64,000 nt of DNA from Candidatus Doudnabacteria bacterium (GTDB taxonomy: Bacteria; Patescibacteriota; Doudnabacteria; UBA920). Position 1 is the stretch's first letter. The number at the start of each line of letters is the position of its first letter. Position numbers and translations under genes: made by a program. The notes below the pieces were generated by a model. It had not been told where the DNA came from. It did no database searches and saw nothing but the letters and a program-made list of their open reading frames with translations. Shown here piece after piece: positions 3,791 to 21,196 of the stretch. The stretch is taken from contig JARLHZ010000039.1 in the NCBI GenBank assembly GCA_031291995.1, positions 18,380 through 82,379 of the forward strand, written 5' to 3'.

Positions 3791-5089
3791 TTAATTGTTA
3801 ATTGTTAAATTATTTAAAGTTGATGAAGCACTGCTGGATGTGTCCGGAGTTATCGTTATCAAAGCAGGAGGCATTGTTGTGGGGTCGACTGCTGGCGGAG
3901 TAGAACTGGAAACATCTGATGCTGCGGGCAAATCTTCAACGGTTGTAGTGGAATTATTAGTTTGTGGTGTCTGAGCAGGAACGGTTGCTGGCTGTCTTTG
4001 GCTAACAGCCATTACATCGGGACACTTGCCGGGCTGCGACTGCAAAACATTGTTGGCCGAGAAAATACAAACCGGTAGCTTGGTTACGGTATCATAGATA
4101 GTGATACCTGCTGGCTGGTCAAGCGATCCAACCTCTAGCTGCTTAGTTTGAACCATATCGGCAATCAAACTCTCGACCTTTATAAAACCCTGCGCAATAC
4201 TTACTCCCAAACTTTTTAAGCCATCCAATATCCATGAAATATCGAGCATTGCGGATATTTTGGCATCCAGTCCCTGAATACCGGCCAGCGCCACACCAGC
4301 GGGGTCTATCGTAGAAATAGAACTACTACTGTTGCCAAGGCCGAAGGCTGTATAAAAATCTTCTGCAACCGGACCTATATGCACAATGTCCGAATTCTCT
4401 GTTTTATAATTCCAAGTATAGATGGGCAAACTATCAATCTTGGTTAAAATATTATCTGGGGTTATGGTGGCAAAATTTTCTTTTAATTCTTTACTGGAAG
4501 CATTCGTCCAGCTATAACCGTCAAAGTTTGCGATTGAAACCGGGGATTCTATGGTGGCAACGTTTAAGTTAGCCATAGTAGTGGAAGCGGTAAAATTTGC
4601 GTTGCCAGAAAATGATGCGCTGCCTTCGTTTGTAAATGCTCCGGTGCTGTCCAAGTCCCCGGTGTTAACGCTATTGACCGTGATGTTGTCGCCGGAAAGG
4701 TTGGTAGCAGCCAAAAAAGTTTGTTGGTTTGCGGCCGATACTGCTCCCGGAATGTAGACCTGCTGGAAGTCGGAAGAGTTGGGGTCGACTGAGGCCAGGG
4801 TTGGAAAAGAAGAAGTGTCTCCTTTGTCGCCCTTTTCTCCTTTTAGCAAACCCTGTGATACCATTTTATTTACCATATCTGTTACTAAGCTGGTAATGTA
4901 GGCATCGCTGACGGTGTAACTGCCTAAAACCTGTGGTTTTGTCAGACTGACTACCAGAGCCTTTTTATTACCATAAGCTAAGTAACGGTTGTTACTAAAA
5001 GCTAAGGCTCGGCTGGTATTTAGCGCAAAGATTAAAAACGCCAAAAAAACTGTAACTATTGGTATTTGCTTTGAAGGAGGCTTCGCCAT
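3791..5089 (-). CDS. membrane-anchored fibre-like protein with a short collagen-like Gly-X-Y stretch and a peptidase-S74 / intramolecular-chaperone (tail-fibre/endosialidase C-terminal) domain
   Basis: N-terminal TM. GEKGDKGDT triplets. SSKELKENF...DSLPIYTWNYKTE..DIVHIGPVAEDF...DPAGVALAGIQGL matches the SDxRLKxNI...auto-chaperone module of phage tail fibres. S/T/P-rich C-terminus. Stop is 3 bp from the SBP gene start. Confidence 0.7.
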   Translation of the reverse strand: MAKPPSKQIPIVTVFLAFLIFALNTSRALAFSNNRYLAYGNKKALVVSLTKPQVLGSYTVSDAYITSLVTDMVNKMVSQGLLKGEKGDKGDTSSFPTLASVDPNSSDFQQVYIPGAVSAANQQTFLAATNLSGDNITVNSVNTGDLDSTGAFTNEGSASFSGNANFTASTTMANLNVATIESPVSIANFDGYSWTNASSKELKENFATITPDNILTKIDSLPIYTWNYKTENSDIVHIGPVAEDFYTAFGLGNSSSSISTIDPAGVALAGIQGLDAKISAMLDISWILDGLKSLGVSIAQGFIKVESLIADMVQTKQLEVGSLDQPAGITIYDTVTKLPVCIFSANNVLQSQPGKCPDVMAVSQRQPATVPAQTPQTNNSTTTVEDLPAASDVSSSTPPAVDPTTMPPALITITPDTSSSASSTLNNLTINN

Positions 5090-6579: not shown

Positions 6580-7199
6580 AAAAAATCATTATTGTTTTAT
6601 CGGCAATATTCTCACTGGCCGCCGGCTGCCAGAGCGCTATTGTCACTCAAACTCCGCCGGCAAAACCAGGAGCCTGCACCCTGGAAGCCAAACAGTGCCC
6701 GGATGGCTCTTATGTTGGCCGCAGCGGCCCTAACTGCGAGTTTGCGGCCTGTCCTGAACCGAAAGCGACAACTACTCCTACTCAACCACCGTCTCCGGTA
6801 GTCTGCCCACAAATTGCCTTGGCCTGCCCGGACGGCAGCTATGTTAAACCGGAAGGACCAAATTGCAAAATCCCTGACTGCCCGACCCTAACCAGCGGCA
6901 TAGAGGGAAAAATTACCCTAGGCCCGACTTGCCCAGTAGAACGAATGCCGCCAGATCCTAACTGTGCAGACAAACCTTATCAGGCTATGGTAATAGTTAA
7001 AACCGCAGACGGGCAAAAAGAAATTACGCGCTTTACTTCCCAAACCGATGGTACGTTCAAACAAGCCTTAAAGCCAGGCACGTATTTGCTGGTGTCGGTA
7101 AGCGCTCAAGTCTATCCACGGGGCGTACAGCAAACCGTGATAGTGAACGCAAATACCTTCAGCCAGGTTACAATTAGCTATGATACTGGGATAAGGTAA
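6576..7199 (+). CDS. Cys-rich lipoprotein
   Basis: Lipobox LAAGC. Three repeats CPDGSYV..GPNC..(A/D)CP. 14 Cys in ~120 aa, then a beta-rich C-terminal domain. ATGA overlap with the ArsR gene. Confidence 0.7.
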   Translation: MKKIIIVLSAIFSLAAGCQSAIVTQTPPAKPGACTLEAKQCPDGSYVGRSGPNCEFAACPEPKATTTPTQPPSPVVCPQIALACPDGSYVKPEGPNCKIPDCPTLTSGIEGKITLGPTCPVERMPPDPNCADKPYQAMVIVKTADGQKEITRFTSQTDGTFKQALKPGTYLLVSVSAQVYPRGVQQTVIVNANTFSQVTISYDTGIR

Positions 7200-7200
7200 C

Positions 7201-7312
7201 CCCTACAAGCCGTTTCTTACAACAACCCTACAAGCTATTTCAAGCGTTTCCTGCCCGAGTCGACATCTGGAGCCATCGGCAAATTCACGCGGCGTTTTAC
7301 GTGTAGGGTAGG
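7201..7312. repeat. ~100-nt structured direct repeat, copy A (CCCTACA...TGTAGGG long imperfect hairpin)
   Basis: About 80% identical to 8761..8863. Outer arms CCCTACA/TGTAGGG and inner arms GCGTTTCC/GCAAATTCACGC are complementary. Confidence 0.75.
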
Positions 7313-7329
7313 CTAAGAAGGGAAGGAAG

Positions 7330-8694
7330 TTAAAATGGTATCCCGATTGTATCAGTAGCCTCGGCGATATCCGCCTTTTTCGGCTGTTTAACAAGCTCCT
7401 TTTGCATTTCAGTTTTTTGTTCGGCGCTTAGCTGATCAAACTCCTCTAAGTCCTGGCGGGACTTTACCTGTAAGTGTTTGTCCATTTTTATAACTTTTTC
7501 GCTAACCTTCAATGCCATTTCATTAAATCCAAGCAGTTTGATGCCTGCCAGGGAGCGGACGCGGGACAGGGCCACGTAGCCCATACCATATTCAAAGGTC
7601 TTGCTTAAATCGATTTCCGCACAGTCCAAGCTCATCCCTTGGCTTTTATGAACAGTAATGGCCCAAGCCAGTCGTAGCGGCACTTGGCTGATTGAGGCTA
7701 ATATTTTCCTGCCGTCTTCAATCTTCCATTTTTCAGGATAGGCGATAATCACCTTGCCGTGAACAGTTTTAATAATTGGGTAGCCGCTGTCTTTGTCAAA
7801 ACCTGTTACCGTACCCAGCGTACCGTTAACATAGCCCAAATCAAAATTATTCTTTACGAACATAACCACGGTACCGGTTTTTAATACCAGCCGTTCAGGT
7901 GCCAGGCAGCTTTCTCTCAGCGTTTCCACCAAGTGTGGAATGCCTTCAGAGTACATTTGGTAAACTGATTCCTTGCCTTTTAATTTAGCCAGCTCAAACT
8001 GGTTATAAGCGTCTACGTTGCTGTTGTGGGTATGCAACTTAGTGGGCTTAATCTTAAAACTTACCGGCTGATTGATCCGTTCAGCGAGTACGGCTTTGGT
8101 ATCCATTGTAGTTCCGTTACGGCGAATGTCGTTTAATACCCGTAAAAATCTTTTATCATCTTGGCGGTATTGCTCTTCCAGATAGCAAATTTTGATGTCC
8201 ATATTTTGCCAGATTCCAGACTCAGTCACAAATCTGCCGTCCTCCCTGGCAGTCCTTGTTACGGGCGGCAGTTGGAAAAAATCCCCGCATAGGATAGTCT
8301 GGATGCCGCCAAAGGGCGCGGCGCTTTCCTTAAATTCTTTGCAGATTCTGTCCACCAGATCCAGCCGACTGGCATTGAGCATGGAGATTTCGTCGATTAT
8401 TAAAACCTTGGCGTATTTTATCCGTTCCCACAGGTGCTCTTTTTCCGTCAGTCTCTCTATCTGCTCATCGGACAGGTTCTGCTCAATGCCCATGCCGCAC
8501 CAGGAATGAATGGTGCGACCGTTGATATGCGTTGCCGCGATGCCGGTAGAGGCCGTTATCCCCGGATCAACATCATTGTGTTTCAGGTAATTTATATATT
8601 GGTTCAGCAAAAAAGTCTTGCCGCAGCCGGCGGGGCCGGTGAGGAAGACGTTATATCCAGACTTTAACATTTCTAAGGCTTGGGGTTGGGTCAT
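7330..8694 (-). CDS. PIF1/RecD-like SF1 DNA helicase
   Basis: Walker A GPAGCGKTFLL, Walker B LIIDEISML, motif ITVHKSQGMSLD. Confidence 0.8.
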   Translation of the reverse strand: MTQPQALEMLKSGYNVFLTGPAGCGKTFLLNQYINYLKHNDVDPGITASTGIAATHINGRTIHSWCGMGIEQNLSDEQIERLTEKEHLWERIKYAKVLIIDEISMLNASRLDLVDRICKEFKESAAPFGGIQTILCGDFFQLPPVTRTAREDGRFVTESGIWQNMDIKICYLEEQYRQDDKRFLRVLNDIRRNGTTMDTKAVLAERINQPVSFKIKPTKLHTHNSNVDAYNQFELAKLKGKESVYQMYSEGIPHLVETLRESCLAPERLVLKTGTVVMFVKNNFDLGYVNGTLGTVTGFDKDSGYPIIKTVHGKVIIAYPEKWKIEDGRKILASISQVPLRLAWAITVHKSQGMSLDCAEIDLSKTFEYGMGYVALSRVRSLAGIKLLGFNEMALKVSEKVIKMDKHLQVKSRQDLEEFDQLSAEQKTEMQKELVKQPKKADIAEATDTIGIPF

Positions 8695-8760
8695 AAATTG
8701 GTTGTCTTTGTCTGTGTGGAATTAATTATATCGTTTTAAGGATGGAGGATTTTTATACTG

Positions 8761-8863
8761 GCCTACAAGCAATCACCCTACATAGGATTTCAAACGTTTC
8801 CTGCCCAGGCGATATATGGAGCCACCAGCAAATTCACGCAGCGATTTGTATGTAGGGTGGGAG
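8761..8863. repeat. ~100-nt structured direct repeat, copy B
   Basis: Same-orientation copy of 7201..7312. The two copies bracket the helicase gene. Confidence 0.75.
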
Positions 8864-8994
8864 TAAACAAGGTGTTAATATTACTTGGAAATTCCTACAA
8901 AGCGAGTCTTTGAAATTTTGGCTGGTTATGATAGTCTTATAGTATAGATTTTCGTCGAAGGCCCGTCCTTTTTGGCGGAGAAATGGTTTCAGAG

Positions 8995-9037
8995 CAATCT
9001 GAAATAGGCGAAAACGCGGACCCCTTAACAGGGGTCT
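8995..9037 (+). terminator. Rho-independent terminator module (ATAGGCGAAAACGC + GACCCCTTAACAGGGGTC + T-run)
   Basis: 9-bp GC stem followed by TGTTTTTTG. About 80% identical to the module at 10473..10517. Confidence 0.65.
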
Positions 9038-9245
9038 GTTTTTTGTGAGAGTGCTGGTGTTGGTGTCACTGAGTGAAGTATCCTACCCTGCTCATTACGG
9101 GCTACAATCGTCCGCTCATAGCGGGGAGGTGGTAATTCGATTACAAAATGGAAAGGAATCAGTTTTACAGGGGTGTCAGCGGAAAAATATCGGGTAGAGT
9201 CCTGGCTATGCCGATTGTCTGTTTTGTACCAGGCATAATTTAAAG

Positions 9246-10382
9246 TTAATGTTTTTTTTCCGGTTTCATGAACCCGGAGAAGTTTTGCGAGTTCACGCCA
9301 CCCAATTCTTTCCGGCCATTTAAATCTTTAACGAAAATATTTTTTATTTTATCGGTCAAAGAGCGTTCTTTCCATTTGAATTCAAACCCGTCCACAAGCC
9401 CATCGGAAACTTCAATAAGGTCTATTTCTTCGCCCTTGTAAGAGCGCCAGAAATAGTGTTCGGCAAAGGCTCCCAGCGCCTCATTTCGCTTCTTCCTTTC
9501 CACGACGCAGAAGTTTTCCCAGAGCTGGCCCAGGTCCTGACGTCTGTCCAACTGAGTGAAATCGTTTATAATGGCATTGCGGATGCCGAGATCGTAAAAA
9601 TAATATTTTTTTTGTTTGATAATGGATTTTCTTTTGTTGGTAAAGTAGGGCTTTAAGGAAAAAATGATGTACAGTTTTTCCAGAATATCTAAATAGCTGG
9701 TCACGGTTTTGGTGTCAAGTCCCACAATGGTTGCCAGCTCGTTCATAGATACCTGGCCGCCCAATTGCAGAGCCAGGGCTTTTAAGATATGTTCCAGCGA
9801 GCGGGGGTTCTTTATATATTCAATGTTCAGCACGTCTTTAAACAGGTAATTGGTTGCAATATTTTGGATGATATTTCGGCGCGTTTCATCGGTATGAGCC
9901 GTTACAACTTCCGGGTACGAACCATATACCATGAAGTTGTTTAATTCAAATAAGCCTACGGCCCCGGCTTCGCCAAACGAGATGGGGTACATATTATAAG
10001 AAAAGTACCTGCCGGTTAAAGGTTCGTTGACGGTATTGGAAAGTTCAAAAGCAGAAGAACCCGTGGCAATGATTTTCAGTTTGGGCAGCTCGTCAAAAAT
10101 TACTTTCAGCTTGATGCCGATGTCTTCTATTCTCTGGGCCTCGTCAACAACCAGCAAATCAATATCCGCAAATTGCTTAACCATGTCGCGGGAAGGCCGG
10201 TTAAGTTTTTCCTGGTCGTCGATAAAATCTCCGTTTATATAGGTGCTCTTGGCGAAGCGGTCTAAAAAGTGTTTGACTAAAGTTGTTTTCCCTACCTGCC
10301 TGGGCCCGTAAATTATTAAAATTTTGCGATCCCGAAGGTTTTGTGAAATTTTTTCCTCTAAATATCGCTTTATTTCAGGCAT
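9246..10382 (-). CDS. AAA+ ATPase of the DUF4143 (COG1373-like) family
   Basis: Walker A GPRQVGKTTL, Walker B LLVVDEAQRI. About 378 aa, the typical size for the family. Confidence 0.75.
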   Translation of the reverse strand: MPEIKRYLEEKISQNLRDRKILIIYGPRQVGKTTLVKHFLDRFAKSTYINGDFIDDQEKLNRPSRDMVKQFADIDLLVVDEAQRIEDIGIKLKVIFDELPKLKIIATGSSAFELSNTVNEPLTGRYFSYNMYPISFGEAGAVGLFELNNFMVYGSYPEVVTAHTDETRRNIIQNIATNYLFKDVLNIEYIKNPRSLEHILKALALQLGGQVSMNELATIVGLDTKTVTSYLDILEKLYIIFSLKPYFTNKRKSIIKQKKYYFYDLGIRNAIINDFTQLDRRQDLGQLWENFCVVERKKRNEALGAFAEHYFWRSYKGEEIDLIEVSDGLVDGFEFKWKERSLTDKIKNIFVKDLNGRKELGGVNSQNFSGFMKPEKKH

Positions 10383-10472
10383 ATTTTTAATAAAAGTAAA
10401 TTTTTGGAATACACCCCATATTTTATATTTAAATAGAATTTAAGTCAAATTGGGTTTTTGGGCCTAAACGGG

Positions 10473-10517
10473 ATAGGCGAGAACGCAAACCCCAAAATTT
10501 GGGGTTTGTTTTTTTAG
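10473..10517 (+). terminator. Rho-independent terminator module, second copy (ATAGGCGAGAACGC + AAACCCCAAAATTTGGGGTTT + T-run)
   Basis: Near-perfect palindrome followed by GTTTTTTT. Shares the ATAGGCGARAACGC leader with 8995..9037. Confidence 0.65.
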
Positions 10518-10915
10518 CCATCAAAAAAATCGGCCATGCCCTATAGGGGCTAACCGATTTTTCTGTCCTAAGCTGTCTTTATGACTTAGTGATCCAACAT
10601 TGCAATAAGAGGTTGGCTGTTCCTATTCCGCAGATACGCTACGGACACCAGCCATACGGTCAGTATTCGGACTGGCCTTCGGCTATTTTAGCAAGTCGGC
10701 ATGCCTTCTTGCTAAACCAATCTCTGCCAAAAAAGGGCAGGCCTTCGCCGAGACCTTGTGGAGCCGAAGGGCTGGTTATGCTCCGCCGTCGACTGTTTAC
10801 AAAACAGTTGCTCTGCTATTGAACTACTTCGGCATGGGGTGAGGGACGGGTAATGCTCCCGCTTCTCCCGATTCACAGTCGGGTATAATTACTTTTATAC
10901 GACCCTCAACATAAG

Positions 10916-10989
10916 TGGCGCCGGCTGAAGGAACTGAACCCTCACTAACGGGTTTGGAATCCGTCGTCTTACCGTTAGACGAAGCCGAC
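10916..10989 (-). tRNA. candidate tRNA-Trp (anticodon CCA)
   Basis: Hand-folded cloverleaf: 7-bp acceptor with one G-U, U8, 4-bp D-stem with A14 and G18G19, anticodon loop UUCCAAA with U33 and A37, 4-nt variable loop, T-arm GAGGG/UUCAGUU/CCUUC, discriminator G, encoded CCA. Weak points are an A-C closing the anticodon stem and G at position 58. Confidence 0.55.
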
Positions 10990-11177
10990 AAACAAAAAAG
11001 CACCCAGCTATGGTTGCAATCCAATTTATGTTTAAAAGTTTATCTTATGCAAAAACATAAAGCAAATTACCCATAGCAAAATCCGTGGAATCTTTCCACG
11101 TGGTGGTATGATGTGTTGTTTGGGTAACTATTTGCTTCATAATAAATAAGACGAAAGCACTTATAGTTTTGTTACAG

Positions 11178-11603
11178 TTATTTTCTTTCCTTTAGTTCAA
11201 TTGATTCTTTTGTTAGATCAAATTTAATTACAAAAATTTCAAAAAATCCTTTTTGCCCCAAGATGCCATAACTGTCCTCGGAAATCTCTTCGGAAAACCC
11301 GACTGTGGTGTTATATTTCCAGCCACCGATGACCAAAGTAATTTTGTGCAGGTATGCGGCCGCTGCTTCAGTTTTTTGAACTCCACCAAAGGTTAGCTTT
11401 TCACCGGCGGTAATGTCCAAGCCTAAGGCCTCGCCGACTTCGGTATGGAATATAGAAAAATCGGCACCGGAATCAACTAGCGCCCTGTATTGCAAAGACT
11501 TATCGCCGTTAGCAATCCTGATGTCAATAATTGGCTTTAAAATAGAACTGCCGAAAAAGTTAGACCTTTCTGGCAGAGTAATTTTGGAGTAGTCAAATTT
11601 CAT
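11178..11603 (-). CDS. retropepsin-like (clan AA) aspartic protease
   Basis: ALVDSGADFSIF matches the D-S/T-G-A active-site motif. Likely start is MKFDYSKI; the in-frame upstream extension overlaps the next gene. Confidence 0.7.
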   Translation of the reverse strand: MKFDYSKITLPERSNFFGSSILKPIIDIRIANGDKSLQYRALVDSGADFSIFHTEVGEALGLDITAGEKLTFGGVQKTEAAAAYLHKITLVIGGWKYNTTVGFSEEISEDSYGILGQKGFFEIFVIKFDLTKESIELKERK

Positions 11604-11622
11604 TTTGTTTTTGGGTCGAAGT

Positions 11623-11817
11623 TTAAATAGCTCCGATCTGGGGAATAATGCGGGTGGGGACTTTAAAGAGGATGGGGTCATTAAAACCTTTGGTATTGGC
11701 CTCGTTTAAAACCTCTTTTACTGTTTTGCCGGCAGCAACAACCGTGATCTTATCTTCTTTTAAGGCTACCCATAGACCCTTATATTTTTGATAGATTTTA
11801 GTTAAATCAATGGCCAT
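11623..11817 (-). CDS. small protein (DUF5678-like) paired with the retropepsin-like protease
   Basis: 64 aa, KGLWVAL..DKITVVAAGKTVKEVLNEANTKGF..PILFKVP. Same strand, immediately upstream of the protease. Confidence 0.55.
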   Translation of the reverse strand: MAIDLTKIYQKYKGLWVALKEDKITVVAAGKTVKEVLNEANTKGFNDPILFKVPTRIIPQIGAI

Positions 11818-12310
11818 AAAATGAAAGTTTAATGATAATTTATATAACGAATTAGCAAACCGTTTGATACACTAATTTTACCTCAAGCGACCTAGCCGGT
11901 CAAACAGGGGAGGGTTCGGGAACAGAGTGAACAATTTTGCCCCGACTGTCACGCTCTACAATTTTCCGCGCGTAATGGGGCGGGGGCATTTTTACGGTAA
12001 AGGAAAAGGGGATAAATTTTGCGTCATCCCGCAAAGACGTATGCCCTTCGACAGGCTCAGGACTATGGGCGGTTGCGCTCAAGCTATGCCGATTTGAAAT
12101 GAAATAAAATTGAATTATAAATTAGAAATTATGAATGTAGCGCAGGCCAGTGGCCTGCTTTTACAGTTCACCCAATAGTATAAGCCAGACGGGCGCTTTA
12201 GCCAAGAGATTGACGGAATTAAATATTTGGCATACCATATTTTCTGTAGAAGCACACCATGCTCGTCGTAGACAGGGTGTGCGTTTTTATTTGTAGGAGG
12301 ATTCCGTAAA

Positions 12311-12676
12311 ATGTCGGTTACGATAGTCAGCAGGCTGAGCAATCCGAGGCCCACCGTGCGTCATACGAAGTTGTTTCCGTTACAAGGCATCAGGCCCGTG
12401 TGCCAGGTAGCGAATGAAGAACACGAGGTGTCCTTCATGATTTTGGCGGCGCACGCCGTTAAAATGGGGATGACTCCGGAAATCAAGCTGGAATATGCAG
12501 TCATGCAACTGAATAGGGCGGCTATTAAACTGCCCGAAGACACGCAACTCATCCGGTGCAACCAGCACGCCGATGGCATCCGCCTGACGCTACAGCAGGG
12601 TGATGTTTTTTCCCGGTTTGAGGATACCGTCGAAGTTTTTCTCCAACGCTTCTACCACTTCGACAACGCAGCCTAG
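12311..12676 (+). CDS. hypothetical protein in GC-rich segment
   Basis: ORF followed by a Rho-independent terminator at 12691..12730. No recognisable domain. The flanking DNA is markedly more GC-rich. Confidence 0.4.
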   Translation: MSVTIVSRLSNPRPTVRHTKLFPLQGIRPVCQVANEEHEVSFMILAAHAVKMGMTPEIKLEYAVMQLNRAAIKLPEDTQLIRCNQHADGIRLTLQQGDVFSRFEDTVEVFLQRFYHFDNAA

Positions 12677-12690
12677 CTGACATTCACCCT

Positions 12691-12730
12691 CGCGGGCGGC
12701 CGCCTTCCAGTCGCCCGCGAATCCTTTTTG
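12691..12730 (+). terminator. Rho-independent terminator
   Basis: Stem CGCGGGCG...CGCCCGCG followed by AATCCTTTTTG. Confidence 0.6.
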
Positions 12731-12756
12731 GGAGGGTTTTTATTTTGGTAAAATTG

Positions 12757-12785
12757 TTGACATAGTTTAGTTCATGACGTAGTAT
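12757..12785 (+). promoter_or_regulatory. sigma-70-like promoter (TTGACA-17-TAGTAT)
   Basis: Consensus -35 hexamer, 17-nt spacer and near-consensus -10, about 70 nt upstream of the ORF at 12856. Confidence 0.55.
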
Positions 12786-12855
12786 ATGTCTTAAGATTCA
12801 GCGTTGCCGATGTAATCTCGGTGCGTTGTTTTCTTAAATCTAGATTGGGGGTTTC

Positions 12856-13338
12856 ATGAAGAGTTTTTCGTTGGTCGGGTACACGCCGATATTCCAGCGG
12901 CCTATTGCCGTTGGTTTGGCCAGCCAGAATGCTGGTGGTGTAAGATATATCGATGTTAAGCGGGAGCACTTAGGTCGCCAAGCCGCCGTATGCGAGATTC
13001 TCGCGAGGCAGAAGATTCAGCCCAAGCGGCTGAGGGACTCTGCCGAGCCGCCCGCGGCTCCCGTGGTGCTGCTTGCCAATAATAGGCATCGTATGCATTT
13101 TGCCATGTTGGCGAGTGTCTCTGGTATCACCAGGACAACTAGCCCGGAAAAGGCCGTAGGCTTGATTGCGGTTGTCTCATCGTGTCTGCCGAAAGGCATC
13201 GTTCTGCACCGGAGGACCTTCGGGCGTCACATCATTCGCCTGACGCTGGCTAGTACCGCCGGACATTCCCGCTTTGAGGGTACGCCAGGACAGTTGATCC
13301 AATCCTTCCTTACCTCTGATCCGCAGCGGTCATCCTAG
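12856..13338 (+). CDS. hypothetical protein in GC-rich segment
   Basis: 160-aa ORF downstream of a consensus promoter. No recognisable domain. Confidence 0.4.
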   Translation: MKSFSLVGYTPIFQRPIAVGLASQNAGGVRYIDVKREHLGRQAAVCEILARQKIQPKRLRDSAEPPAAPVVLLANNRHRMHFAMLASVSGITRTTSPEKAVGLIAVVSSCLPKGIVLHRRTFGRHIIRLTLASTAGHSRFEGTPGQLIQSFLTSDPQRSS

Positions 13339-13475
13339 TTTTATATTTCTGCTCCGCTCCCGCAAGCAGAACAAGGGCGCATCGCAGGCTTTTCTCCAAA
13401 GCTTCGGCGCCCTTTAATTTTGTGCTAAACTGAAACTAGCCGATAATTTTATCGATTTAGTAATTAGCAATCTTT

Positions 13476-14273
13476 ATGAAAATTACCAATCCAACTAAAA
13501 TCAAAAATAAGTCTTTAATTGTTTTTGACCTGGACGGTACGCTGGCGCCGAGCAAGACGCCTATGGATGGGGAGATGTGCGGGTTGATGGAAAAATTGCT
13601 GGAAGCCAAAAAGGTGGCGGTTATTGGCGGGGGAAAATATGATTTGTTTAAGGAACAGCTTTTGGCGCCGCTAAAAATTTCCAAAGATTTATTTAAAAGA
13701 CTTTATTTATTCCCCACAACTTCCACATCTTTTTATAAATACGAAAAATCCTGGAAAAACATTTATGCCCACCAGCTAAGCCAGGCCGAACGGGCAAAAA
13801 TAAAAAAGACTTTTGCCAAGGTGTTAAAGGAAATTAATTACCAGGCTCCGCCAAAAACATACGGAAGAGTTATAGAAGACCGCGGCACCCAGGTAACGTT
13901 TAGCGCGCTCGGGCAGGACGTGGTCAAAATTTTGGGCCGGGACAAGGGCGTGGCCATGAAAGACAAATGGCGCGACGAAAACACGCCGGTTAAACTGAAA
14001 ATCGCCAAATTAATGTCCAAGTATCTGCCCGATTTGGAAATCCGCGCGGCCGGGCACACCTCGGTGGACGTGACCAAGAAGGGGATAGACAAGGCCTACG
14101 GCTTAAAGCAGATAGAAAAATATTTGGGCGTAAAAATTAAAGACATGCTGTTTATAGGCGACGCCATTTTCCCCGGCGGCAACGACTACGCCATTACCAA
14201 AACCAAAGTCGACTACATGCCCGTTAAAGGACCGGAAGAGACAAAAAAAATTATCAAAGCAATATTAAACTAA
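13476..14273 (+). CDS. eukaryote-type phosphomannomutase (HAD-IIB, PMM family)
   Basis: LIVFDLDGTLAPSKTP (HAD motif I), VIGGGKYDLFKEQL and FIGDA...GGNDY align with PMM1/2-type enzymes. Terminator follows. Confidence 0.75.
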   Translation: MKITNPTKIKNKSLIVFDLDGTLAPSKTPMDGEMCGLMEKLLEAKKVAVIGGGKYDLFKEQLLAPLKISKDLFKRLYLFPTTSTSFYKYEKSWKNIYAHQLSQAERAKIKKTFAKVLKEINYQAPPKTYGRVIEDRGTQVTFSALGQDVVKILGRDKGVAMKDKWRDENTPVKLKIAKLMSKYLPDLEIRAAGHTSVDVTKKGIDKAYGLKQIEKYLGVKIKDMLFIGDAIFPGGNDYAITKTKVDYMPVKGPEETKKIIKAILN

Positions 14274-14276
14274 TAC

Positions 14277-14303
14277 AAACGCCCTTGACGGGCGTTTTTA
14301 TTT
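14277..14303 (+). terminator. Rho-independent terminator
   Basis: Stem AAACGCCCTTGACGGGCGTTT followed by TTTATT. Confidence 0.7.
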
Positions 14304-14359
14304 ACTTGGAAATAGTGGCGGCAGCGGACATCGGGTTGATGCGCGCTGCCGTGTGTGCT

Positions 14360-14596
14360 TCATGCGGTCGCTCCTTTTGAAAGCGGAACCAGGCGGATGG
14401 GTTTAATGGTTTTTACGCCATCAAGTCCTTGCGGAAGATCGTTCGCTTGGTGTTCATCAACAGCTGTGATGGTAATTACCAGGGTTTCCCGGTTGTATTC
14501 CATCGGCCATTTTGCCAGTGCTTTCCAAGCTGTGAAGTTGAACCAGGCTGTTCTCATCCTTGAAAGATCCTCAAAACAGTACTCTACTGATATCAC
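14360..14596 (-). CDS. hypothetical small protein
   Basis: 78-aa ORF co-directional with trpS and the upstream 122-aa ORF. The plus-strand alternative (14355..14600) looks low-complexity. Confidence 0.4.
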   Translation of the reverse strand: MISVEYCFEDLSRMRTAWFNFTAWKALAKWPMEYNRETLVITITAVDEHQANDLPQGLDGVKTIKPIRLVPLSKGATA

Positions 14597-14611
14597 ATAA
14601 CCCCCATGGGA

Positions 14612-14980
14612 TTAGACATTTGATAACATCCGATGAGACTTTTTTGCGATGTGGTGGTGCGACCTCCTTAAAAACAATACATTAGGGCCGTATAAACTTA
14701 GGATTTCGATTGCCTGCTCCAGCGGCAGACGGACAATGAACATCTTTTCTATCAGATCTTCATGGTCTTGAAAAGTACCCTGCTCGGGTGATCTAATTTC
14801 GATCAGCGCTGCGAAGGTGGTCTTGGACTCATGTTCGGCTCCTTTTATTTCATACGTATCATCCAGAACCGGCCGAAAACCAAACACGGACTTTTTATTC
14901 ACGGACGTAATAAATCCGCGTCCCAATGAGTTGAGATCTCTAAAATATATTACCAAGGTATAAGATATTGTGTCCTGCAT
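14612..14980 (-). CDS. hypothetical protein
   Basis: 122 aa. Strong SD AAGGAGG 6 nt upstream of the ATG. Lies downstream of trpS on the same strand. Confidence 0.6.
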   Translation of the reverse strand: MQDTISYTLVIYFRDLNSLGRGFITSVNKKSVFGFRPVLDDTYEIKGAEHESKTTFAALIEIRSPEQGTFQDHEDLIEKMFIVRLPLEQAIEILSLYGPNVLFLRRSHHHIAKKSHRMLSNV

Positions 14981-15022
14981 GGAAACCTCCTTGGGAATCC
15001 AACAAAAAATCGGACAGCTATG

Positions 15023-16066
15023 CTATAGCAGTCCGATTTTTTGTTTGACTTCCAAAAGTGTTTGACCGGCGACTTTACGGGCACGACTGGCACCGTCGCC
15101 GAGGATTTCGGCCAGGTAGTCCGGCTTGTTTAAGAGTTCTTTTTTCTTTTCGCGAAATTCGGCAAAGAAATTATAAATGTCGTCCGCCAGGGTTTGTTTG
15201 AGCTCGCTGTATTGTAATAATCCTTCGGTTTGTTTGTCCGCGAAATATTTTTTGGTCTTTTCCGGACTAAAGCTGTTCATCAAGAGGAATAAATTATCTA
15301 CCCCGGCGCTGGCTTTACCACTGGCATCCGAAGCCGTTACGGCTTTTTTGAGCTTACGCTGAATTTCTTCCCGGGTATCATCCAAAAGCAACGCTTCGTC
15401 GCCCGTCTTGCTCATTTTTTTGGTCGGGTCCTGCAGGCTCATTATACGCAAAGGCTTTCTAAGATAAGTTTGCGGCTCGGGGAAAATTTTTCCGAATTTG
15501 CCATTGAATTTTTTGGCAATCAACCGCGCCAATTCCACATGCTGGACCTGGTCTTCGCCCACCGGCACGGCCGAAGGTTTGTAGAGCAAAATATCCGCGG
15601 CCATGAGGCACGGGTAGGTGAGCAGGCCGGCATTGGCCACTTCCTTGTTTTGGCTAATCTGGATGCCGATTTTGCCGGCCATGGAAACTTTTTTCCCGCC
15701 GCCCGAGGTTTGTTGTTCCACTTTATCCTTAAACTGCGTCATCCGGTAGAGTTCGCCCAAAGGCGTAATGCAGTTAAATATCCAGGCCAACGTGGCGTGT
15801 TCCAAAACGTGATTTTGTAAAAAGAATGTGGTTTTGTTAGGGTCAATCCCCAAAGACAAATAGGTGGCGGCAATATCCAAAGTATTTTGTGAAAGTTCCT
15901 TGGATTCAAACGGCGTGGTAATCCCGTGCAAATCCGCAATAAAATAAAAGCAGCGGTTATTGGGATCGGCCTGGGTGTCCAATAGCTGTTTAATAAGCCC
16001 CAAATAATGCCCAATATGCAATTTCCCGCTGGCCCGTATCCCGGCTACCAATGTTTGCTGTGTCAT
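15023..16066 (-). CDS. trpS: tryptophanyl-tRNA synthetase
   Basis: HIGH motif (KLHIGHYLG) and KMSKT(GD). ITPFESKEL...GIDPNKTTFFLQNHV...MTQFKDK aligns with bacterial TrpRS. 347 aa. Confidence 0.85.
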   Translation of the reverse strand: MTQQTLVAGIRASGKLHIGHYLGLIKQLLDTQADPNNRCFYFIADLHGITTPFESKELSQNTLDIAATYLSLGIDPNKTTFFLQNHVLEHATLAWIFNCITPLGELYRMTQFKDKVEQQTSGGGKKVSMAGKIGIQISQNKEVANAGLLTYPCLMAADILLYKPSAVPVGEDQVQHVELARLIAKKFNGKFGKIFPEPQTYLRKPLRIMSLQDPTKKMSKTGDEALLLDDTREEIQRKLKKAVTASDASGKASAGVDNLFLLMNSFSPEKTKKYFADKQTEGLLQYSELKQTLADDIYNFFAEFREKKKELLNKPDYLAEILGDGASRARKVAGQTLLEVKQKIGLL

Positions 16067-16150
16067 AAAGAGATTATACCAAAAAACTCCCCAAAAGGGG
16101 AGGTGCTTGCGTAGTTGCCCGATTTATCGAGCCTGTAGCAACAATCACGG

Positions 16151-16411
16151 CTAACCGTAAAGTTCAGAGTGGGTATCAATATTAACAAATTTTACATAAT
16201 TTTCTTCTTGCTTAAAAATTGCCCGATAATCACCGCTTACGTTTATGCTTCGGCAGCCTGGGTAAGCTTTGTGAACATCATGATTATGAAGTATGGAGTT
16301 AAAGGGGTTTTCCAAAAATAAAATCAGCCGTTCTTTAAAAGCCATCTGAATGGTTTTTGGCATCTGCGAGTATTTTTTCTGGAAATGCTTGTGATAAAAA
16401 ACACTTGTCAT
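16151..16411 (-). CDS. RelE/ParE-family toxin (type II TA)
   Basis: 86 aa, ...HKAYPGCRSINVSGDYRAIF. 4-bp ATGA overlap with the upstream antitoxin gene. Confidence 0.7.
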   Translation of the reverse strand: MTSVFYHKHFQKKYSQMPKTIQMAFKERLILFLENPFNSILHNHDVHKAYPGCRSINVSGDYRAIFKQEENYVKFVNIDTHSELYG

Positions 16412-16689
16412 GTTAGAGTATCCAAGTACTCTATGGCATCTTTGGCGTTAGTAAAACCCGGGGACAGGTTTTTACCTTTCTTAATGTCTCTTAAGGCTTG
16501 TTTAACTTCTTTGTCAGTTTTGTAATTAAATTTAGGTTCCGCAACCACGGTCACATCCATTTTGCGGTTGGCATAGGCCTGTGTGGCCATCTTAAGCACA
16601 AAAGCCAAAGGCACACCCTCCTCTTTTGCCCGTTTCATGGCCTTTTGTTTTAAGGCTTTATCGATTTTAAAAATAACTTGGGAGTTCAT
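16408..16689 (-). CDS. antitoxin (RelB/DinJ or RHH-like) partner
   Basis: 93-aa charged protein immediately upstream of and overlapping the toxin gene. Confidence 0.6.
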   Translation of the reverse strand: MNSQVIFKIDKALKQKAMKRAKEEGVPLAFVLKMATQAYANRKMDVTVVAEPKFNYKTDKEVKQALRDIKKGKNLSPGFTNAKDAIEYLDTLT

Positions 16690-16728
16690 ACATAAATTTT
16701 AATAGTATAACCAAAGTATAGCTTATAG

Positions 16729-17004
16729 TTATATAAGTGTCAAAAAAAATGAGCGCCGCAGAGTGACAAGTGCGGCGCTCGGAGAGGTTACGATCTGTAG
16801 CCTTCCGCCGATTGATCTTCGGCCATAATCCGGGCCAAGTCGGGCGGGGGAACGACTTGTTCCCATAGCCGGTTGCGCCCAACGGCAATCCTCGCGCCAG
16901 TAGGTGTTAGGCGTGGGCTGCTTTTTGGGTGCAACCACTGTTGGCTGGAGTTCAGTGTTGTCTCGATAAGGTGAGCAGGAACCGATGCTACATTGCTTAG
17001 TCAT
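16729..17004 (-). CDS. questionable small ORF in a GC-rich, hairpin-rich segment
   Basis: AGGAGGA is 5 nt upstream of ATG(MTKQ...). The ORF reads through a strong hairpin followed by T-run at its 3' end. Odd composition. Could instead be a structured RNA. Confidence 0.3.
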   Translation of the reverse strand: MTKQCSIGSCSPYRDNTELQPTVVAPKKQPTPNTYWREDCRWAQPAMGTSRSPARLGPDYGRRSIGGRLQIVTSPSAALVTLRRSFFLTLI

Positions 17005-17158
17005 TATCCTCCTAAAAAAAGCCGCCAAGCGTTGCTCGGCGGCATTCGGGTATATTGTAGCGCATCTATGAAAACTGTCAAAAATTTGTTTTATTGCAAA
17101 GTTTGTACTTTTACTTCATAATTAAAGCGTTAATAAGAGAAATTCAATTTAAAAATAT

Positions 17159-17344
17159 TTGTTGTTTGTAAAATATATGGACGCTAAAAATATCGAGAAA
17201 AAGGTTAAAGAGCTACAGACTGTAATGGCCGGTTATAAGCATGAATTGAGTAGTTTGGAAAAAACTTTGTATAGGTCGATTTCGGATTATCAGAAAGCTA
17301 TAGACGAGGAAAAGCTTAAAGATATCAGAAGTAGTCTGTCTTAA
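17159..17344 (+). CDS. small coiled-coil protein, first gene of a 3-gene operon
   Basis: 61 aa. Promoter-like TTGCAA-17-CATAAT upstream. Stop is 1 nt from the next start. Confidence 0.5.
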   Translation: MLFVKYMDAKNIEKKVKELQTVMAGYKHELSSLEKTLYRSISDYQKAIDEEKLKDIRSSLS

Positions 17345-17345
17345 T

Positions 17346-20300
17346 ATGCCATCAACTTTGTTACAATCAGAAAGTTCTCTTGAGGGTCATAGGGAATCAG
17401 CTCAAATGCCGGAGGCGCAAAGTCCAGAAATATCGGACCACGACGAGGCAAGTTTGCGGAGAATGGTTGATCAGGCAACAGCAGAAATCTCCTCGGTCCA
17501 GGCAAGAATAGATGCTATCTCTGAGGATCGTTTGCAGAAAGCCTCATCGGGCCTGGCCCCGGAAAGGGCGGGCCGTATATTTTCGACCGGTGGTTTTGCT
17601 GACCGGATAAGTAAAGTCAAAAAGGAAATTTCGGATTTAATAAATCGTACAAAGAGCCAAATTGGTGTATTGCTTAAGCCTTCATCGGAAATTGAAACCC
17701 GACAATCAAAAAATGAACCAGACTCCGACTCTGAACATAAAGCCGCGTCTCCCCAAAGTTTGGAGCATTATATGGAAGCAAACAAGCTTGGCGGAATGGA
17801 AACGGTGAAGGAAAAAGCCCGTCTCGCGCAGTTGCGCTTACAAAGGATAAAGAATCCGGAAAAGGTTTTGGCTTTGGCTCATTATTTGGAACAATTCTCT
17901 GTAAACACGGAATTTAAAAATCTCAAGATTTCAAAGAATGAACGAAAAAAAATCGAAGAAGAGGAGGGGAAGTTAAAAAAACAAGGATTTAATATCAGGG
18001 GTCGGTATACTGATGATGAAGAAGAAGACAAGGTGAAACTATGGGCAACCAAGGAATCTCCATATTCATTTAACACCCACGATTCAAAATTTCTTGCCAA
18101 AGACCTTGCTGAAATGGTTAGCTCGCCAAACGATCCGGTTAGGATGTTTGAATCCTTGCGCAATCTCGGATACCACCTTGAGATTATTAAAAACTGGACG
18201 TTCCATGACAACGATAAGCTGAAAGAGTTTTTTAAAAATCCCGGTGCGTTGGCATTTTTGGAAAAGGTAAAAACGTTCGGGGGAGAGGGGCTTAAGAAGG
18301 ATCTTTTTAAGGGCTATGACCCAATACTCAGACTTTCGGAATTGGCTACTAAAGATTCTGCCGAGCATATTTTTACTCCGGAGTCGGAAAAAAATTTGGA
18401 GAAGGTCTCCGCAATATTGGGTAAGCCCGTGGAATTTGCCGATGTCGAAGATTGGATTGAACTCTCCCGGGGAGACACCCTAATGGAAATTTTTTCCACG
18501 TTGAAAAAGATGCCGGGCAGTGACATTTCCACTAGTGACTGGTTAAATAAACTGCACATAATTAAGGAGAGAGGTGTGGAAAATGAGGTTGTGGAGCTTT
18601 TGAAAAAAGGGTTTTCCGAACGAATGCTTGGGAAATTTTATGGCTATGGTCCGGTTGAAGGCGAAAAGGCCACCGAATCTCTAAAGCAAGCCCTAGAAGT
18701 TTTTAAATCCAACCCGCAATTACAAAAATTCGTGCTTGGGGCGGCAAAAATCTTTGGAATTGAAGATCCGTTAGGGAAAGAGAATCTGGAAAAATTTTGC
18801 AAATTGGAAGAACAAGTTCCGGAAGCCGGGCTGGCATTTGAGTTTTTGTTGGGGATTGGGTTAAAAGGCCAGCCATATGAGTTGCGTGAATTTTTTGGTG
18901 AGCCGGAAATTTTCTTCAGAAATAGGAAATTATTTCAGCGGATGGAGCAACCGCAGGTTAGGCAAGTTATTACTTTGCTGGCAGAATCCGGGCATGAGTT
19001 AAAAATGGATACCTTGTCAGCCGACTTTTATAAAGTGGATATTATTATCGCCGGTGGATTAACTGAGGCTGTGGCGCGATGTAAAGATTTTCCGGGAATG
19101 GCTGATTTTATTATCGGTCACGCGGAGCTTATTAAGGATATTACCAAAAAAGAACTTGCGGAATATCTAAATCAAATTTTATCAGGCAGTGAATCGAAAT
19201 CTATCAGGGACAGGCAGATGGTCCGCGGGGAAATGATGGGTACAGTTTTATCTCAAGGCAGATATGACGTGCTTGCTAAAGTCCTATCAGCCAAGGGAGA
19301 GCTTACCCCAGAGCATACGGAAATAGCTGAACGTGTGGAAAAATTTGTCGATACTTACAAAATTGGAAACAAAGGCCGTACCATAGTCACATTGCTGGCA
19401 ATGAGGGAATATCGCGAAGGTGAAAATTTGGGTGGTTTATTGGAAAGAATCGGTAAAACCTTGGTGGGTTATCAAAAATTATTGGAACAAAAATCGGCGC
19501 ATCATATTCCAGCGGGGCTTCGGGCCTCTATTGGAATGGAATATGAAATAACCAACAGCACAGCTCAAGCGTATTTAAACTCCAATAAGAATTTTTTGGA
19601 GAATGATATGCAGGATGTTTCCCGTTTTGCCGGCGTGGGAAAAGGCAAGGATGCGGTTTTTGAAATCGCAACAAAATCCACTGATAACCCCTACGCAATG
19701 CTTTTGGAGTTGCAGTTGTTGCAGGATTTGGAGTTTATTGATTTTAATTTTAGACGGGAAGGCTATGAAAAAGGTAGCCGCGGTTGTCATATAACAGTTG
19801 GAGGTGAACATGGGCTCAAAACAAATAATAATGCCAATTTTTTACAAAACACTTTAATGATGAGCGGCTGGGGCGGTATTAATGCTGGCCGAAAGGTAGA
19901 GCAGCTGAGCAAAGCGAGAAATGCAAATATTCGCCAGCGCGATACATACAGCACCCAAAAGGTATTTGAAAATTGCCGGCCAGCGGTGGAATTTAGGTCT
20001 TTATCCCTGGACACGTGGGAGCCCTTTGAGCGGACAGTGGAAACTTCCTATTACGGTGCGATAGCGGTTCAGGCTATGGATAAATATTTGTCGGGCTTAA
20101 AGCCGGCGGTGTTTTTCCAAAATTTTGAGACGCAATTTCCGAGGGGCGCGGAAGGCTTGGTCTCAATGCTAAAGGATGCAGGGATGGTTTCTCCCGATTT
20201 AAAGGACGAAAAAACGAAACAAATTATTTTTTTGTGGATGAAGCTGCAGGCAGGAGTATATGGCGCTTTGCAGGATCATAATGAGAATTTTTTGAACAAC

Positions 20301-20756
20301 GAAACGGGCGGTTATTTTGACGAAGATGGAAAATGGATAGATCCGAATGATTTTGGCGGTAATACGAATAAGGAGCGGTTTTTGGCGGTCAGCGGAGGCG
20401 AACAGGGGCTGCAGTCTTATAGTGAAAGTGTTAAAATTTCCCCCGCTGACCTTTTTGAGACCGCGACCGAGGGGCTGGCAAATCGTTGCACAGCCATAAC
20501 CAATCTTTTCATAAAACCGTCCTTAGAATCCGGCGGTGACGTAACAAATGCTACGGCTAGTTTTGATACGACTAAAATCGGTCGAACCATTGAAAGTAGT
20601 GACACTCGGGCCAAATACCAATCTGTTTTTGAGGCCAAAGGGCAGACGAGGGAAGGGTATTATTATATTCAAGGGGGGAGTCAGAAAATGCTCCTTCATC
20701 GAATTCAGATAGAACTTTTGGAGTTTAATAAAGCTATGCAAAAAATAATAGAATAA
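17346..20756 (+). CDS. large (1136 aa) cytoplasmic protein of unknown function; C-terminal third may have an amidoligase/GS-like fold
   Basis: No signal peptide and an acidic, coiled-coil N-terminus. Motifs SIGMEYEIT ... VFEIATKST ... RGCHITVGGEHG resemble the E-x-E / H-x-H-containing strands of COOH-NH2 ligases. This is weak and unverified. Confidence 0.6.
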   Translation: MPSTLLQSESSLEGHRESAQMPEAQSPEISDHDEASLRRMVDQATAEISSVQARIDAISEDRLQKASSGLAPERAGRIFSTGGFADRISKVKKEISDLINRTKSQIGVLLKPSSEIETRQSKNEPDSDSEHKAASPQSLEHYMEANKLGGMETVKEKARLAQLRLQRIKNPEKVLALAHYLEQFSVNTEFKNLKISKNERKKIEEEEGKLKKQGFNIRGRYTDDEEEDKVKLWATKESPYSFNTHDSKFLAKDLAEMVSSPNDPVRMFESLRNLGYHLEIIKNWTFHDNDKLKEFFKNPGALAFLEKVKTFGGEGLKKDLFKGYDPILRLSELATKDSAEHIFTPESEKNLEKVSAILGKPVEFADVEDWIELSRGDTLMEIFSTLKKMPGSDISTSDWLNKLHIIKERGVENEVVELLKKGFSERMLGKFYGYGPVEGEKATESLKQALEVFKSNPQLQKFVLGAAKIFGIEDPLGKENLEKFCKLEEQVPEAGLAFEFLLGIGLKGQPYELREFFGEPEIFFRNRKLFQRMEQPQVRQVITLLAESGHELKMDTLSADFYKVDIIIAGGLTEAVARCKDFPGMADFIIGHAELIKDITKKELAEYLNQILSGSESKSIRDRQMVRGEMMGTVLSQGRYDVLAKVLSAKGELTPEHTEIAERVEKFVDTYKIGNKGRTIVTLLAMREYREGENLGGLLERIGKTLVGYQKLLEQKSAHHIPAGLRASIGMEYEITNSTAQAYLNSNKNFLENDMQDVSRFAGVGKGKDAVFEIATKSTDNPYAMLLELQLLQDLEFIDFNFRREGYEKGSRGCHITVGGEHGLKTNNNANFLQNTLMMSGWGGINAGRKVEQLSKARNANIRQRDTYSTQKVFENCRPAVEFRSLSLDTWEPFERTVETSYYGAIAVQAMDKYLSGLKPAVFFQNFETQFPRGAEGLVSMLKDAGMVSPDLKDEKTKQIIFLWMKLQAGVYGALQDHNENFLNNETGGYFDEDGKWIDPNDFGGNTNKERFLAVSGGEQGLQSYSESVKISPADLFETATEGLANRCTAITNLFIKPSLESGGDVTNATASFDTTKIGRTIESSDTRAKYQSVFEAKGQTREGYYYIQGGSQKMLLHRIQIELLEFNKAMQKIIE

Positions 20757-20761
20757 ACTAT

Positions 20762-21196
20762 ATGGTAAACAATAATCCCGGACATCGATTATATGGAGAA
20801 ACGTTCACTCAGGAAGCGCCTAAGCCAAATGCCGCGGCCTATGAGGTTTTATTGCGCCATTTAAAAAAGCAAGATAGCTTTGAAGGTGAATCGCACGAAA
20901 TTTTAAATGATATTTATAAAGCCTTGTGGGATAGTGAAGCGGAAGCGGATGCTGCTTTAGTCACGATGGAACAAAAGGGGTTGGTTAGCCGCGAAGATAC
21001 TCTGATGTTAATTGTGTTACTCGCCATTTCCCGGACTTTGGGACCCGATTTGGATTTTTTACGGAGGGCAATTATAACTGGTAATTTTAGAGCATCTACC
21101 GTCAACGAAATGATTAAAGCTTCCGGGTTGGATGATTCCTTAGTGAGTTATTTGCAAACAATCACCGATAAGTTTACCGCAGAAATAAAAGAGTAA
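20762..21196 (+). CDS. hypothetical protein, third gene of the operon
   Basis: 144 aa, 5 nt downstream of the large ORF. Confidence 0.5.
   Translation: MVNNNPGHRLYGETFTQEAPKPNAAAYEVLLRHLKKQDSFEGESHEILNDIYKALWDSEAEADAALVTMEQKGLVSREDTLMLIVLLAISRTLGPDLDFLRRAIITGNFRASTVNEMIKASGLDDSLVSYLQTITDKFTAEIKE

Follow-up and report, generated by a model that had tools for sequence, protein, structure and literature searches.

We analysed a stretch of 64,000 nucleotides (the window) of a Candidatus Doudnabacteria bacterium (GenBank assembly GCA_031291995.1, contig JARLHZ010000039.1, positions 18,380 to 82,379), with attention to its interval between about 7.2 and 17 kb, which a first-pass annotation had read as one accessory island (7201-17028). 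The interval is probably the junction of a conserved chromosomal block with a patchwork of small modules, a rearrangement being favoured over a large insertion. The right-hand segment (about 12.3-16.75 kb), with ORF121 and ORF160 (ORF, open reading frame), a PMM-like hydrolase, a small ORF, trpS and a long-resident RelE/RelB pair, would have been inherited, and the left-hand segment (about 7.2-11.85 kb) would be made up of four self-contained units, namely a PIF1 helicase, a PDC-S01 gene, a Trp-His-Thr tRNA operon and a DUF5678-retropepsin cassette. Between them would lie the breakpoint of a chromosomal rearrangement (11.85-12.3 kb) in a zone where small mobile or defence-type modules come together. 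What appeared to be a defence island by its gene names would accordingly be over-read, and would consist of a housekeeping block and a short module zone at a synteny breakpoint. The window is chromosomal DNA of a Doudnabacteria-like organism of the candidate phyla radiation, and sequence identical to it is present on two Logan contigs. Its tryptophan-tRNA ligase (TrpRS) is 70% identical to that of an uncultured-bacterium metagenome-assembled genome (MAG; L001, the loci compared being numbered in this way) and 55-64% identical to those of Candidatus Doudnabacteria MAGs (L002-L004). Elsewhere the window carries genes for UvrA, UvrC, RNase J, ABC transporters, and pilus and large surface proteins.

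The anchors for synteny, in GTDB genomes and JGI metagenomes, were TrpRS and the PMM-like gene. The clade-wide gene order is EFP-SSB-S6-YchF-PMM-TrpRS-RNaseJ, running on into SBP-UvrC-UvrA, and more than 15 related loci have it entirely or partly (for example L001, L002, L083, L084, L092, L093, L096, L112, L115 and L139, with more distant ones besides). The window keeps the RNaseJ...TrpRS-PMM part of this order and has UvrA-UvrC-SBP-RNaseJ-TrpRS in common with L003-L005. A single island from 7201 to 17028 is contradicted by the stretch 12.3-16.75 kb, which is syntenic in related Doudnabacteria-like genomes (L001, L002, L084, L174 and others). Since an ORF160-family gene holds the same chromosomal position in L174/L175, placed there between YchF and a PMM-type gene, and since TrpRS, RelE and RelB are colinear in three lineages (the window, L001 and L174; 67-79% nucleotide identity), this stretch is, as judged by gene order, vertically inherited chromosomal backbone. 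It contains two core genes that the earlier annotation did not mention, trpS (15023..16066, minus strand; TIGR00233 at 285 bits against a cutoff of 176.75) and a HAD-IIB hydrolase resembling eukaryotic PMM (13476..14273, plus strand; PF03332 and TIGR01484). Both are backbone genes, and the hydrolase gene adjoins TrpRS in many relatives. A small ORF without assigned function sits between TrpRS and the PMM-type gene in several relatives; at this place the window has ORF122 (14612..14980, minus strand), which matches no family and shows a weak N-terminal match to its positional counterpart in L002.

The order breaks off on the left of this block. The breakpoint falls in a non-coding interval of about 460 bp (11850..12310), on this side of which relatives carry YchF-S6-SSB-EFP; these four genes were not found anywhere in the 64-kb window. 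A YchF pseudogene at the breakpoint was also considered and discarded, as no YchF remnant was detected in 11850-12310 or elsewhere in the window. The neighbourhood comparison of the left-side genes took in about 160 related loci around PMM and TrpRS, and in these none of the protein genes of the left part (7.2-11.85 kb) is near either anchor. The comparison with relatives that had been proposed as a check therefore divides the interval, with 12.3-16.75 kb conserved and 7.2-11.85 kb absent from the syntenic position. We infer a rearrangement rather than a large insertion because the left side has tRNA-Trp, ZnuABC and Fur, which are not typical island cargo, with ordinary composition, and because its neighbours differ piecemeal between close relatives.

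Composition was tested in 1.6-kb windows (GC mean 0.476, sd 0.038) and by tetranucleotide distance to the profile of the whole window. The GC of the 7-17 kb interval is 0.451 against 0.476 for the window as a whole, and the tetranucleotide z-scores along it lie between -1.1 and +0.8, the distances being equal to or smaller than the window average. The GC and k-mer profile thus gave no anomaly over 7-17 kb, and foreign DNA by composition was ruled out on the same grounds. A segment of about 1.6 kb (11850-13450) had been described as a GC-rich insert of clearly higher GC with its own promoter. It has a GC of 0.504, which is only locally higher, as 25% of equal-sized windows match or exceed this value (about the 75th percentile). 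Rather than an insert, it holds a pair of paralogous rare-family genes that occupy the same position in L174/L175. Promoter-like sites in turn are not enriched (23 found against 16.8 +/- 3.8 expected). ORF160 (12856..13338, plus strand; promoter-like site at 12757-12785) belongs to a rare family of small proteins with no function assigned, which has only 8 cluster representatives among 1.84 billion. ORF121 (12311..12676, plus strand) is its shorter paralogue, with 33% identity over 90 amino acids (E 3e-8). The motif common to the family is IIRLTL..AG.SRFEGTPAQ, to which ORF121 aligns with IRLTL..SRFE.T. The GC content at third codon positions (GC3) of the two genes is 0.63-0.67 (0.67 in ORF121), like that of RNase J and several other window genes. 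Rfam was also searched for a structured RNA that might account for the intergenic regions or for the locally raised GC; it matched nothing other than tRNAs in 10300-13600, 6900-9300 and 16600-17400.

Signs of integration were searched for across the region. No integrase, transposase or recombinase was matched by Pfam among the ORFs scanned across 0.4-33 kb, and a phage-family (PHROG) scan of ten ORFs of 3.8-21.2 kb gave no integration match beyond a weak P-loop match for PIF1. Direct repeats of the tRNA 3' end, which had been suggested as marks of an island boundary, do not occur in the 64-kb window: 24-mers (up to 4 mismatches) and 18-mers (up to 2) from both ends of the four tRNA genes returned self-matches only. 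A prophage or phage origin was rejected, as the interval has no PHROG structural or integration match and PIF1 and the DUF4143 ATPase are without close relatives in IMG/VR. It may be noted that the window resembles tRNA-integrated genomic or defence islands in that its tRNAs adjoin helicase, ATPase and toxin-antitoxin-type genes and its left part is absent from the syntenic site of relatives. It differs from them in having no integrase, duplicated tRNA end or compositional deviation, and in that half of the proposed island is conserved core. The PADLOC profiles gave one strong match (PDC-S01, at full length) and one weak (PDC-M52B, 3e-7, to the retropepsin-like protease), whereas PIF1 matched only the helicase cores of models. 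The left-part modules have restriction-modification, PrimPol-helicase and PDC genes as frequent neighbours in relatives, so the flavour of a defence neighbourhood is partly supported. Partial support for the defence character assigned to the region comes from the PDC-S01 match, the mobile cassette and these neighbours; the RelE/RelB pair lies in the backbone.

The modules of the left half are of already described kinds. As first annotated, 7330..8694 (minus strand) encodes a PIF1-like protein; it is a PIF1-family SF1B DNA helicase of 454 amino acids that matches PF05970 at 131 bits and PF21530 (Pif1_2B_dom) at 36 bits, both above the cutoffs. There are at least 8000 homologues, of which the best 120 are 57-94% identical and about 420-475 amino acids long, and the named ones among these 120 are nearly all Patescibacteria. 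TrpRS, with 42-46% identity to the Magasanikbacteria copies, is less conserved than the helicase. Its neighbours vary from locus to locus: some contexts look like housekeeping ones (DnaA-DnaN in L169; DnaG-RpoD with a PDDEXK_1 partner in L167) and others are defence-like (a GajB-like UvrD and a type IIG restriction-modification gene in L164; PDC-S01 and a PrimPol-helicase in L176). In common with bacterial PIF1-family (SF1B) helicases, the window protein has a PIF1 core and 2B domain, a length of about 450 amino acids and helicase domains only. What sets it apart is a clade that is very common among Patescibacteria and unusually high in identity, and a 95-nt repeat that flanks it on both sides in this lineage only. 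A search of the literature on PIF1 in the candidate phyla radiation found nothing relevant.

The 95-nt repeat has one copy downstream of PIF1 (7220..7312; ends CCCTACA...TGTAGGG; nhmmer E 1e-29) and another, about 80% identical, upstream of it (8770..8865). Of the several repeat families that had been proposed this is the real one, the other short families being at chance level. Three further copies, making five in all, are found in L163 (541-637, 2077-2172 and 2761-2857). This locus is 87% identical in DNA across PIF1 and has the layout rep-PIF1-rep-ArsR-rep, after which come a LOOT RNA and the gene of a large surface protein; it is without the 207-aa gene and the PAP2-Fur neighbours of the window, and a gene indel adjoins a repeat. 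The conserved core consists of GTTTCCT, CTGGAGCCA and AATTCACGC, and most copies have, as judged by eye, a motif CCTACAAGC located 5-15 nt upstream of their first terminus. The repeat matches no Rfam family at E<=5, its core has no copy in IMG/VR viral contigs, and no copy was seen around the PIF1 genes of five other lineages. A conserved RNA fold was tried as an explanation and set aside, because RNAalifold on the five copies, on both strands, gave weak energy and at most 2 pairs with compensatory change; the fold z-scores are likewise weak (-1.2 to -2.3). In integrons the attC consensus boxes are GTTRRRY/RYYYAAC. The likeness to integron cassette arrays and to REP/BIME-type repeats is that repeats of similar length with inverted termini separate single genes in L163. 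The termini CCCTACA/TGTAGGG are however not attC boxes, the interior is non-palindromic, only five copies are known, and no integron integrase was present near the repeat among the ORFs scanned by Pfam.

The DUF4143 ATPase of the first-pass annotation was likewise borne out (9246..10382, minus strand; AAA_14, PF13173, and DUF4143, PF13635). It corresponds to the PADLOC candidate PDC-S01 (PDLC04789), its residues 1-372 matching profile positions 1-373 of 375 with an E value of 9.8e-128. As in PDC-S01 (AAA_14 ATPase with DUF4143, COG1373), the window protein is a single-gene system with the same two-domain architecture and a full-length profile match. DUF4143 has been classed in the PD-(D/E)XK superfamily (PMC3424549), and the window protein is predicted to be an ATPase with a PD-(D/E)XK nuclease. 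PDC-S01 ranks fourth in abundance among the defence candidates in prokaryotes, with validation pending (PMC12988326), and in E. coli B a single representative failed to protect against T4, T5 or T7 (bioRxiv 10.1101/2024.09.26.614923). The antiviral role of the family is thus that of a candidate, and for the window member we infer a defence role. The locus adds one more placed example of this very common and unvalidated gene. A 22-nt motif, GATAGGCGARAACGCRRACCCC, lies on either side of the gene, each time followed by a hairpin and a T-run. One copy is downstream (9003..9045, plus strand; terminator-like hairpin at 9016-9039) and the second upstream (10472..10515, plus strand, opposite to the DUF4143 gene). 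The window has two matches to the motif against 0.01 expected by chance, and these pairs of motif and hairpin could be bidirectional terminators, 3' ends of small RNAs or cassette boundaries.

The helicase and the ATPase had been proposed to form an undescribed defence module, which did not survive the comparison with other loci. In the window a spacer of 550 bp, containing repeats and a hairpin, separates the two genes. A DUF4143 gene was seen near PIF1 in one of five other contexts (L176), and none in L164, L167, L169 and L179 (5-10 kb per locus); the L163 locus ends before the position where the gene would be. The protein of L176 is a non-orthologous paralogue, 24% identical to that of the window and with another PDC-S01 sub-model as its best match, and a PrimPol-helicase gene stands between it and PIF1. 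Adjacency is therefore not conserved, and a dedicated two-gene module is unlikely because PDC-S01 is so abundant that chance proximity in defence-rich neighbourhoods is expected.

The fourth unit of the left half is the cassette of a retropepsin-like aspartyl protease of 141 amino acids (11178..11603, minus strand; PF13650) and a small DUF5678 protein, its conserved partner upstream (11623..11817, minus strand; PF18929). Both had been recognised beforehand, and the catalytic DSGA motif of the protease is intact. The start of the protease is placed at 11603 and not at 11681 because its homologues are about 141 amino acids long; these are 55-93% identical, and Patescibacteria account for the few that are named. 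The two genes stay together in L171 (beside an IS1595 fragment), L172 and L173, and a fused DUF5678-protease form exists (P0131). DNA homology to these three contexts ends at 11180 and 11849, and therefore the unit consists of the two genes and about 30 nt upstream. In L173 the cassette, at 82% nucleotide identity, stands behind a restriction-enzyme-like ATPase, a PDC-S61-like gene and a PrimPol-helicase. The architecture resembles that of toxin-antitoxin systems, and the cassette may have a role in addiction or defence. Nothing relevant was found in the literature on DUF5678 or on retropepsin toxin-antitoxin pairs. The conserved pair is hereby documented in bacteria of the candidate phyla radiation, whose defence repertoires are poorly described.

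Where the first-pass annotation had one tRNA, Rfam finds three tandem tRNA genes, all on the minus strand. The tRNA-Trp (CCA) it had named (10916..10989; ARAGORN and Rfam) is canonical and stands first in the operon. The two that had been missed are non-canonical and have an encoded CCA, one with anticodon GUG (His-like; 10835..10909, 33.7 bits, T-loop AGCAUUA) and the other with anticodon UGU (Thr-like; 10759..10833, 43.1 bits, T-loop AGCAUAA). Both exceed the gathering score of 29 of RF00005, the CCA directly follows the discriminator base, and the spacers in the operon are 6 and 1 nt. In place of UUCRANN their T-loop is AGCAUWA, and the D-loops, AAAAGUAA and AAUAGCA, are without GG. The His-like tRNA has a G at -1 (10910) but a U1.C72 mismatch; the Thr-like tRNA has a clean cloverleaf as its minimum-free-energy fold and a bulged A in the T-stem. 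ARAGORN misses both at its default setting, the His-like one being found only at the 90% threshold and the Thr-like one missed even at 80%; relaxed thresholds give many false positives and are unusable. Further tRNAs with an AGCAUWA T-loop were looked for in 175 relatives' loci, where the sole other match (L008) is a plain palindrome. Should the genome have no tRNA-His and tRNA-Thr(UGU) besides the GUG and UGU genes, these would be functional structural outliers. The two tRNA genes with their non-canonical T-loop and the gene-bracketing 95-nt repeat are leads that could be of interest outside this locus as well. The last tRNA is followed by about 200 nt (10560-10760, minus strand) that extend to a strong bidirectional hairpin terminator (10522-10565); they are well paired, not significantly so (z -1.7), match no Rfam family, and are possibly a processed 3' trailer RNA of the operon.

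As already annotated, a RelE/RelB-like pair is present near the right end of the interval. The toxin is a RelE/StbE (YafQ-like) protein of 86 amino acids (16151..16411, minus strand), which is just above the cutoff of TIGR02385 (28.3 bits against 27.9, hence marginal) and under that of PF15738 (27.4 bits against 30). The gene upstream (16408..16689, minus strand; promoter-like site at 16743-16715) encodes 93 amino acids, is RelB-like by position and overlaps the toxin gene by 4 nt; its product matches no Pfam or NCBIfam family. In L001 and L174/L175 too the pair is directly beside trpS, at 72-79% nucleotide identity. Because three lineages have it at the same place beside trpS, and L001 and L174 share 90-91% identity with the window in the antitoxin-position protein, the pair behaves as a long-term resident and not as a recently mobile module. 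For an antitoxin this is an unusually strong conservation across lineages with TrpRS identities of about 70% or less (70% to L001). The small upstream gene that overlaps a RelE/StbE-family toxin by 4 nt is as in type II RelE/RelB (YafQ/DinJ-like) systems; the antitoxin outside described families and the fixed position of the pair are unlike them.

Several points weigh against the junction of an inherited block with a module patchwork as we have drawn it. Even the closest genomes in which the backbone is preserved reach no more than 64-80% identity in PMM and TrpRS; the timing and type of the break cannot be fixed. A contig of the same strain (L081) reaches 3 kb past the start of the window without YchF, and as it extends just these 3 kb, an insertion of more than 15 kb is possible. 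In such a case everything to the left of about 12.3 kb, starting outside the window and amounting to at least 15 kb, would be one large accessory insertion between YchF and the ORF160-family genes, of which the helicase, ATPase, cassette and tRNA patch forms the right-hand end. We regard this as unlikely. It would account for the lack of YchF-S6-SSB-EFP in the window and the 3 kb beyond, and for the fact that no gene of 0.4-12.3 kb adjoins PMM or TrpRS in the related loci; a Peptidase_S74 or tail-fibre-like protein at 3791-5089 also speaks for it. But the cargo would then include the tRNA-Trp with the sole Trp anticodon, ZnuABC, Fur and PAP2, all of window-typical composition, there is no integrase and there are no att repeats, and the PIF1-ArsR arrangement of L163 with yet other neighbours suits piecemeal shuffling better. 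The protein at 3791-5089 (minus strand, 432 amino acids) has a Peptidase_S74 (endosialidase chaperone) domain and weak matches to tail-fibre PHROGs, and it lies between ZnuA and Fur in an otherwise cellular context.

Two further points against the favoured reading concern the left-hand modules themselves. The PDC-S01 paralogue of L176 is two genes away from PIF1, which makes a linkage of the two families in this lineage possible, and direct repeats bracket both PIF1 and the DUF4143 gene, which could point to a shared cassette-type mobility. A single tRNA-associated island of 7.2-17 kb, with PIF1 and DUF4143 as one undescribed two-gene defence module, has some points in its favour: the genes are adjacent on the same strand, PDC-S01 counts among the defence candidates, a PDC-S01 paralogue, a PrimPol-helicase and PIF1 follow one another in L176, and PIF1 adjoins restriction-modification and GajB-like genes in L164. 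This reading is highly improbable in view of the conserved backbone of 12.3-16.75 kb, the lack of a composition anomaly, integrase or tRNA-derived repeats, the 550 bp with repeats and a hairpin between the genes, and the definition of PDC-S01 as a very abundant single-gene system (PMC12988326). Moreover, 4 of 5 other PIF1 contexts have no DUF4143 gene within 5-10 kb, and the ATPase of L176 is non-adjacent and 24% identical. The bracketed genes could also be cassettes of a repeat-mediated gene-shuffling array, given the 95-nt pair around PIF1, the motif and hairpin around the DUF4143 gene, and the gene indel beside a repeat in the rep-PIF1-rep-ArsR-rep locus of L163. Such an array is scarcely probable, as the 95-nt repeat has five copies only, confined to two close relatives, no recombinase is nearby, a conserved fold is without covariation support, and no such repeats surround PIF1 in five other lineages. 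There is similarly a slim chance that the direct-repeat pairs (95-nt at PIF1 and, in L163, at ArsR; 22-nt motif and hairpin at PDC-S01) mark a repeat-mediated shuffling of cassettes that is independent of an integrase; if true, this would explain why gene neighbours differ even between genomes 87% identical in DNA.

Some observations were made on the backbone and its surroundings. The slot of the 265-aa HAD-type enzyme (13476-14273 in the window, and most relatives) is occupied in L174/L175 by a 472-aa PGM_PMM-type phosphomutase (8983-10401 in L174), which is possibly a case of non-orthologous displacement. ORF99 (16729..17028, minus strand) is probably not a gene: it has a TTG start within a terminator hairpin (17043-17021) and a low-complexity product rich in R, P, S and T, and neither a family match nor a homologue in the relatives' loci compared was found. 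A second place of variation is the gap from RelB to RNase J, which measures 4.6 kb here and stays below 1 kb in most relatives. In the window it holds ORF99 and two proteins of 1136 and 144 amino acids (17346-21196, plus strand) that have no Pfam, PADLOC or PHROG match, and the tetranucleotide profile here is the most deviant of the first 25 kb (z about 2). Just beyond RelB, L174 has a type III methyltransferase, a PD-T7-4-like gene and a ResIII/SWI2_SNF2 helicase-like gene (the locus ends before RNase J). LOOT RNA (Rfam RF03000, 57-77 bits) had no match at the equivalent position of the window; in relatives it is found in L174 (12732-12859, plus strand), L163 (3020-3136, plus strand) and L001 (9009-9126, minus strand), directly upstream of a long ORF in all three and just past the RelB gene in two. 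In L001 a reverse-transcriptase gene (RVT_1; 16217-17212, plus strand) lies between YchF and S6, and in L002 an IS200-like Y1 transposase lies between RNase J and TrpRS; therefore, the same backbone junctions collect mobile genes in other lineages.

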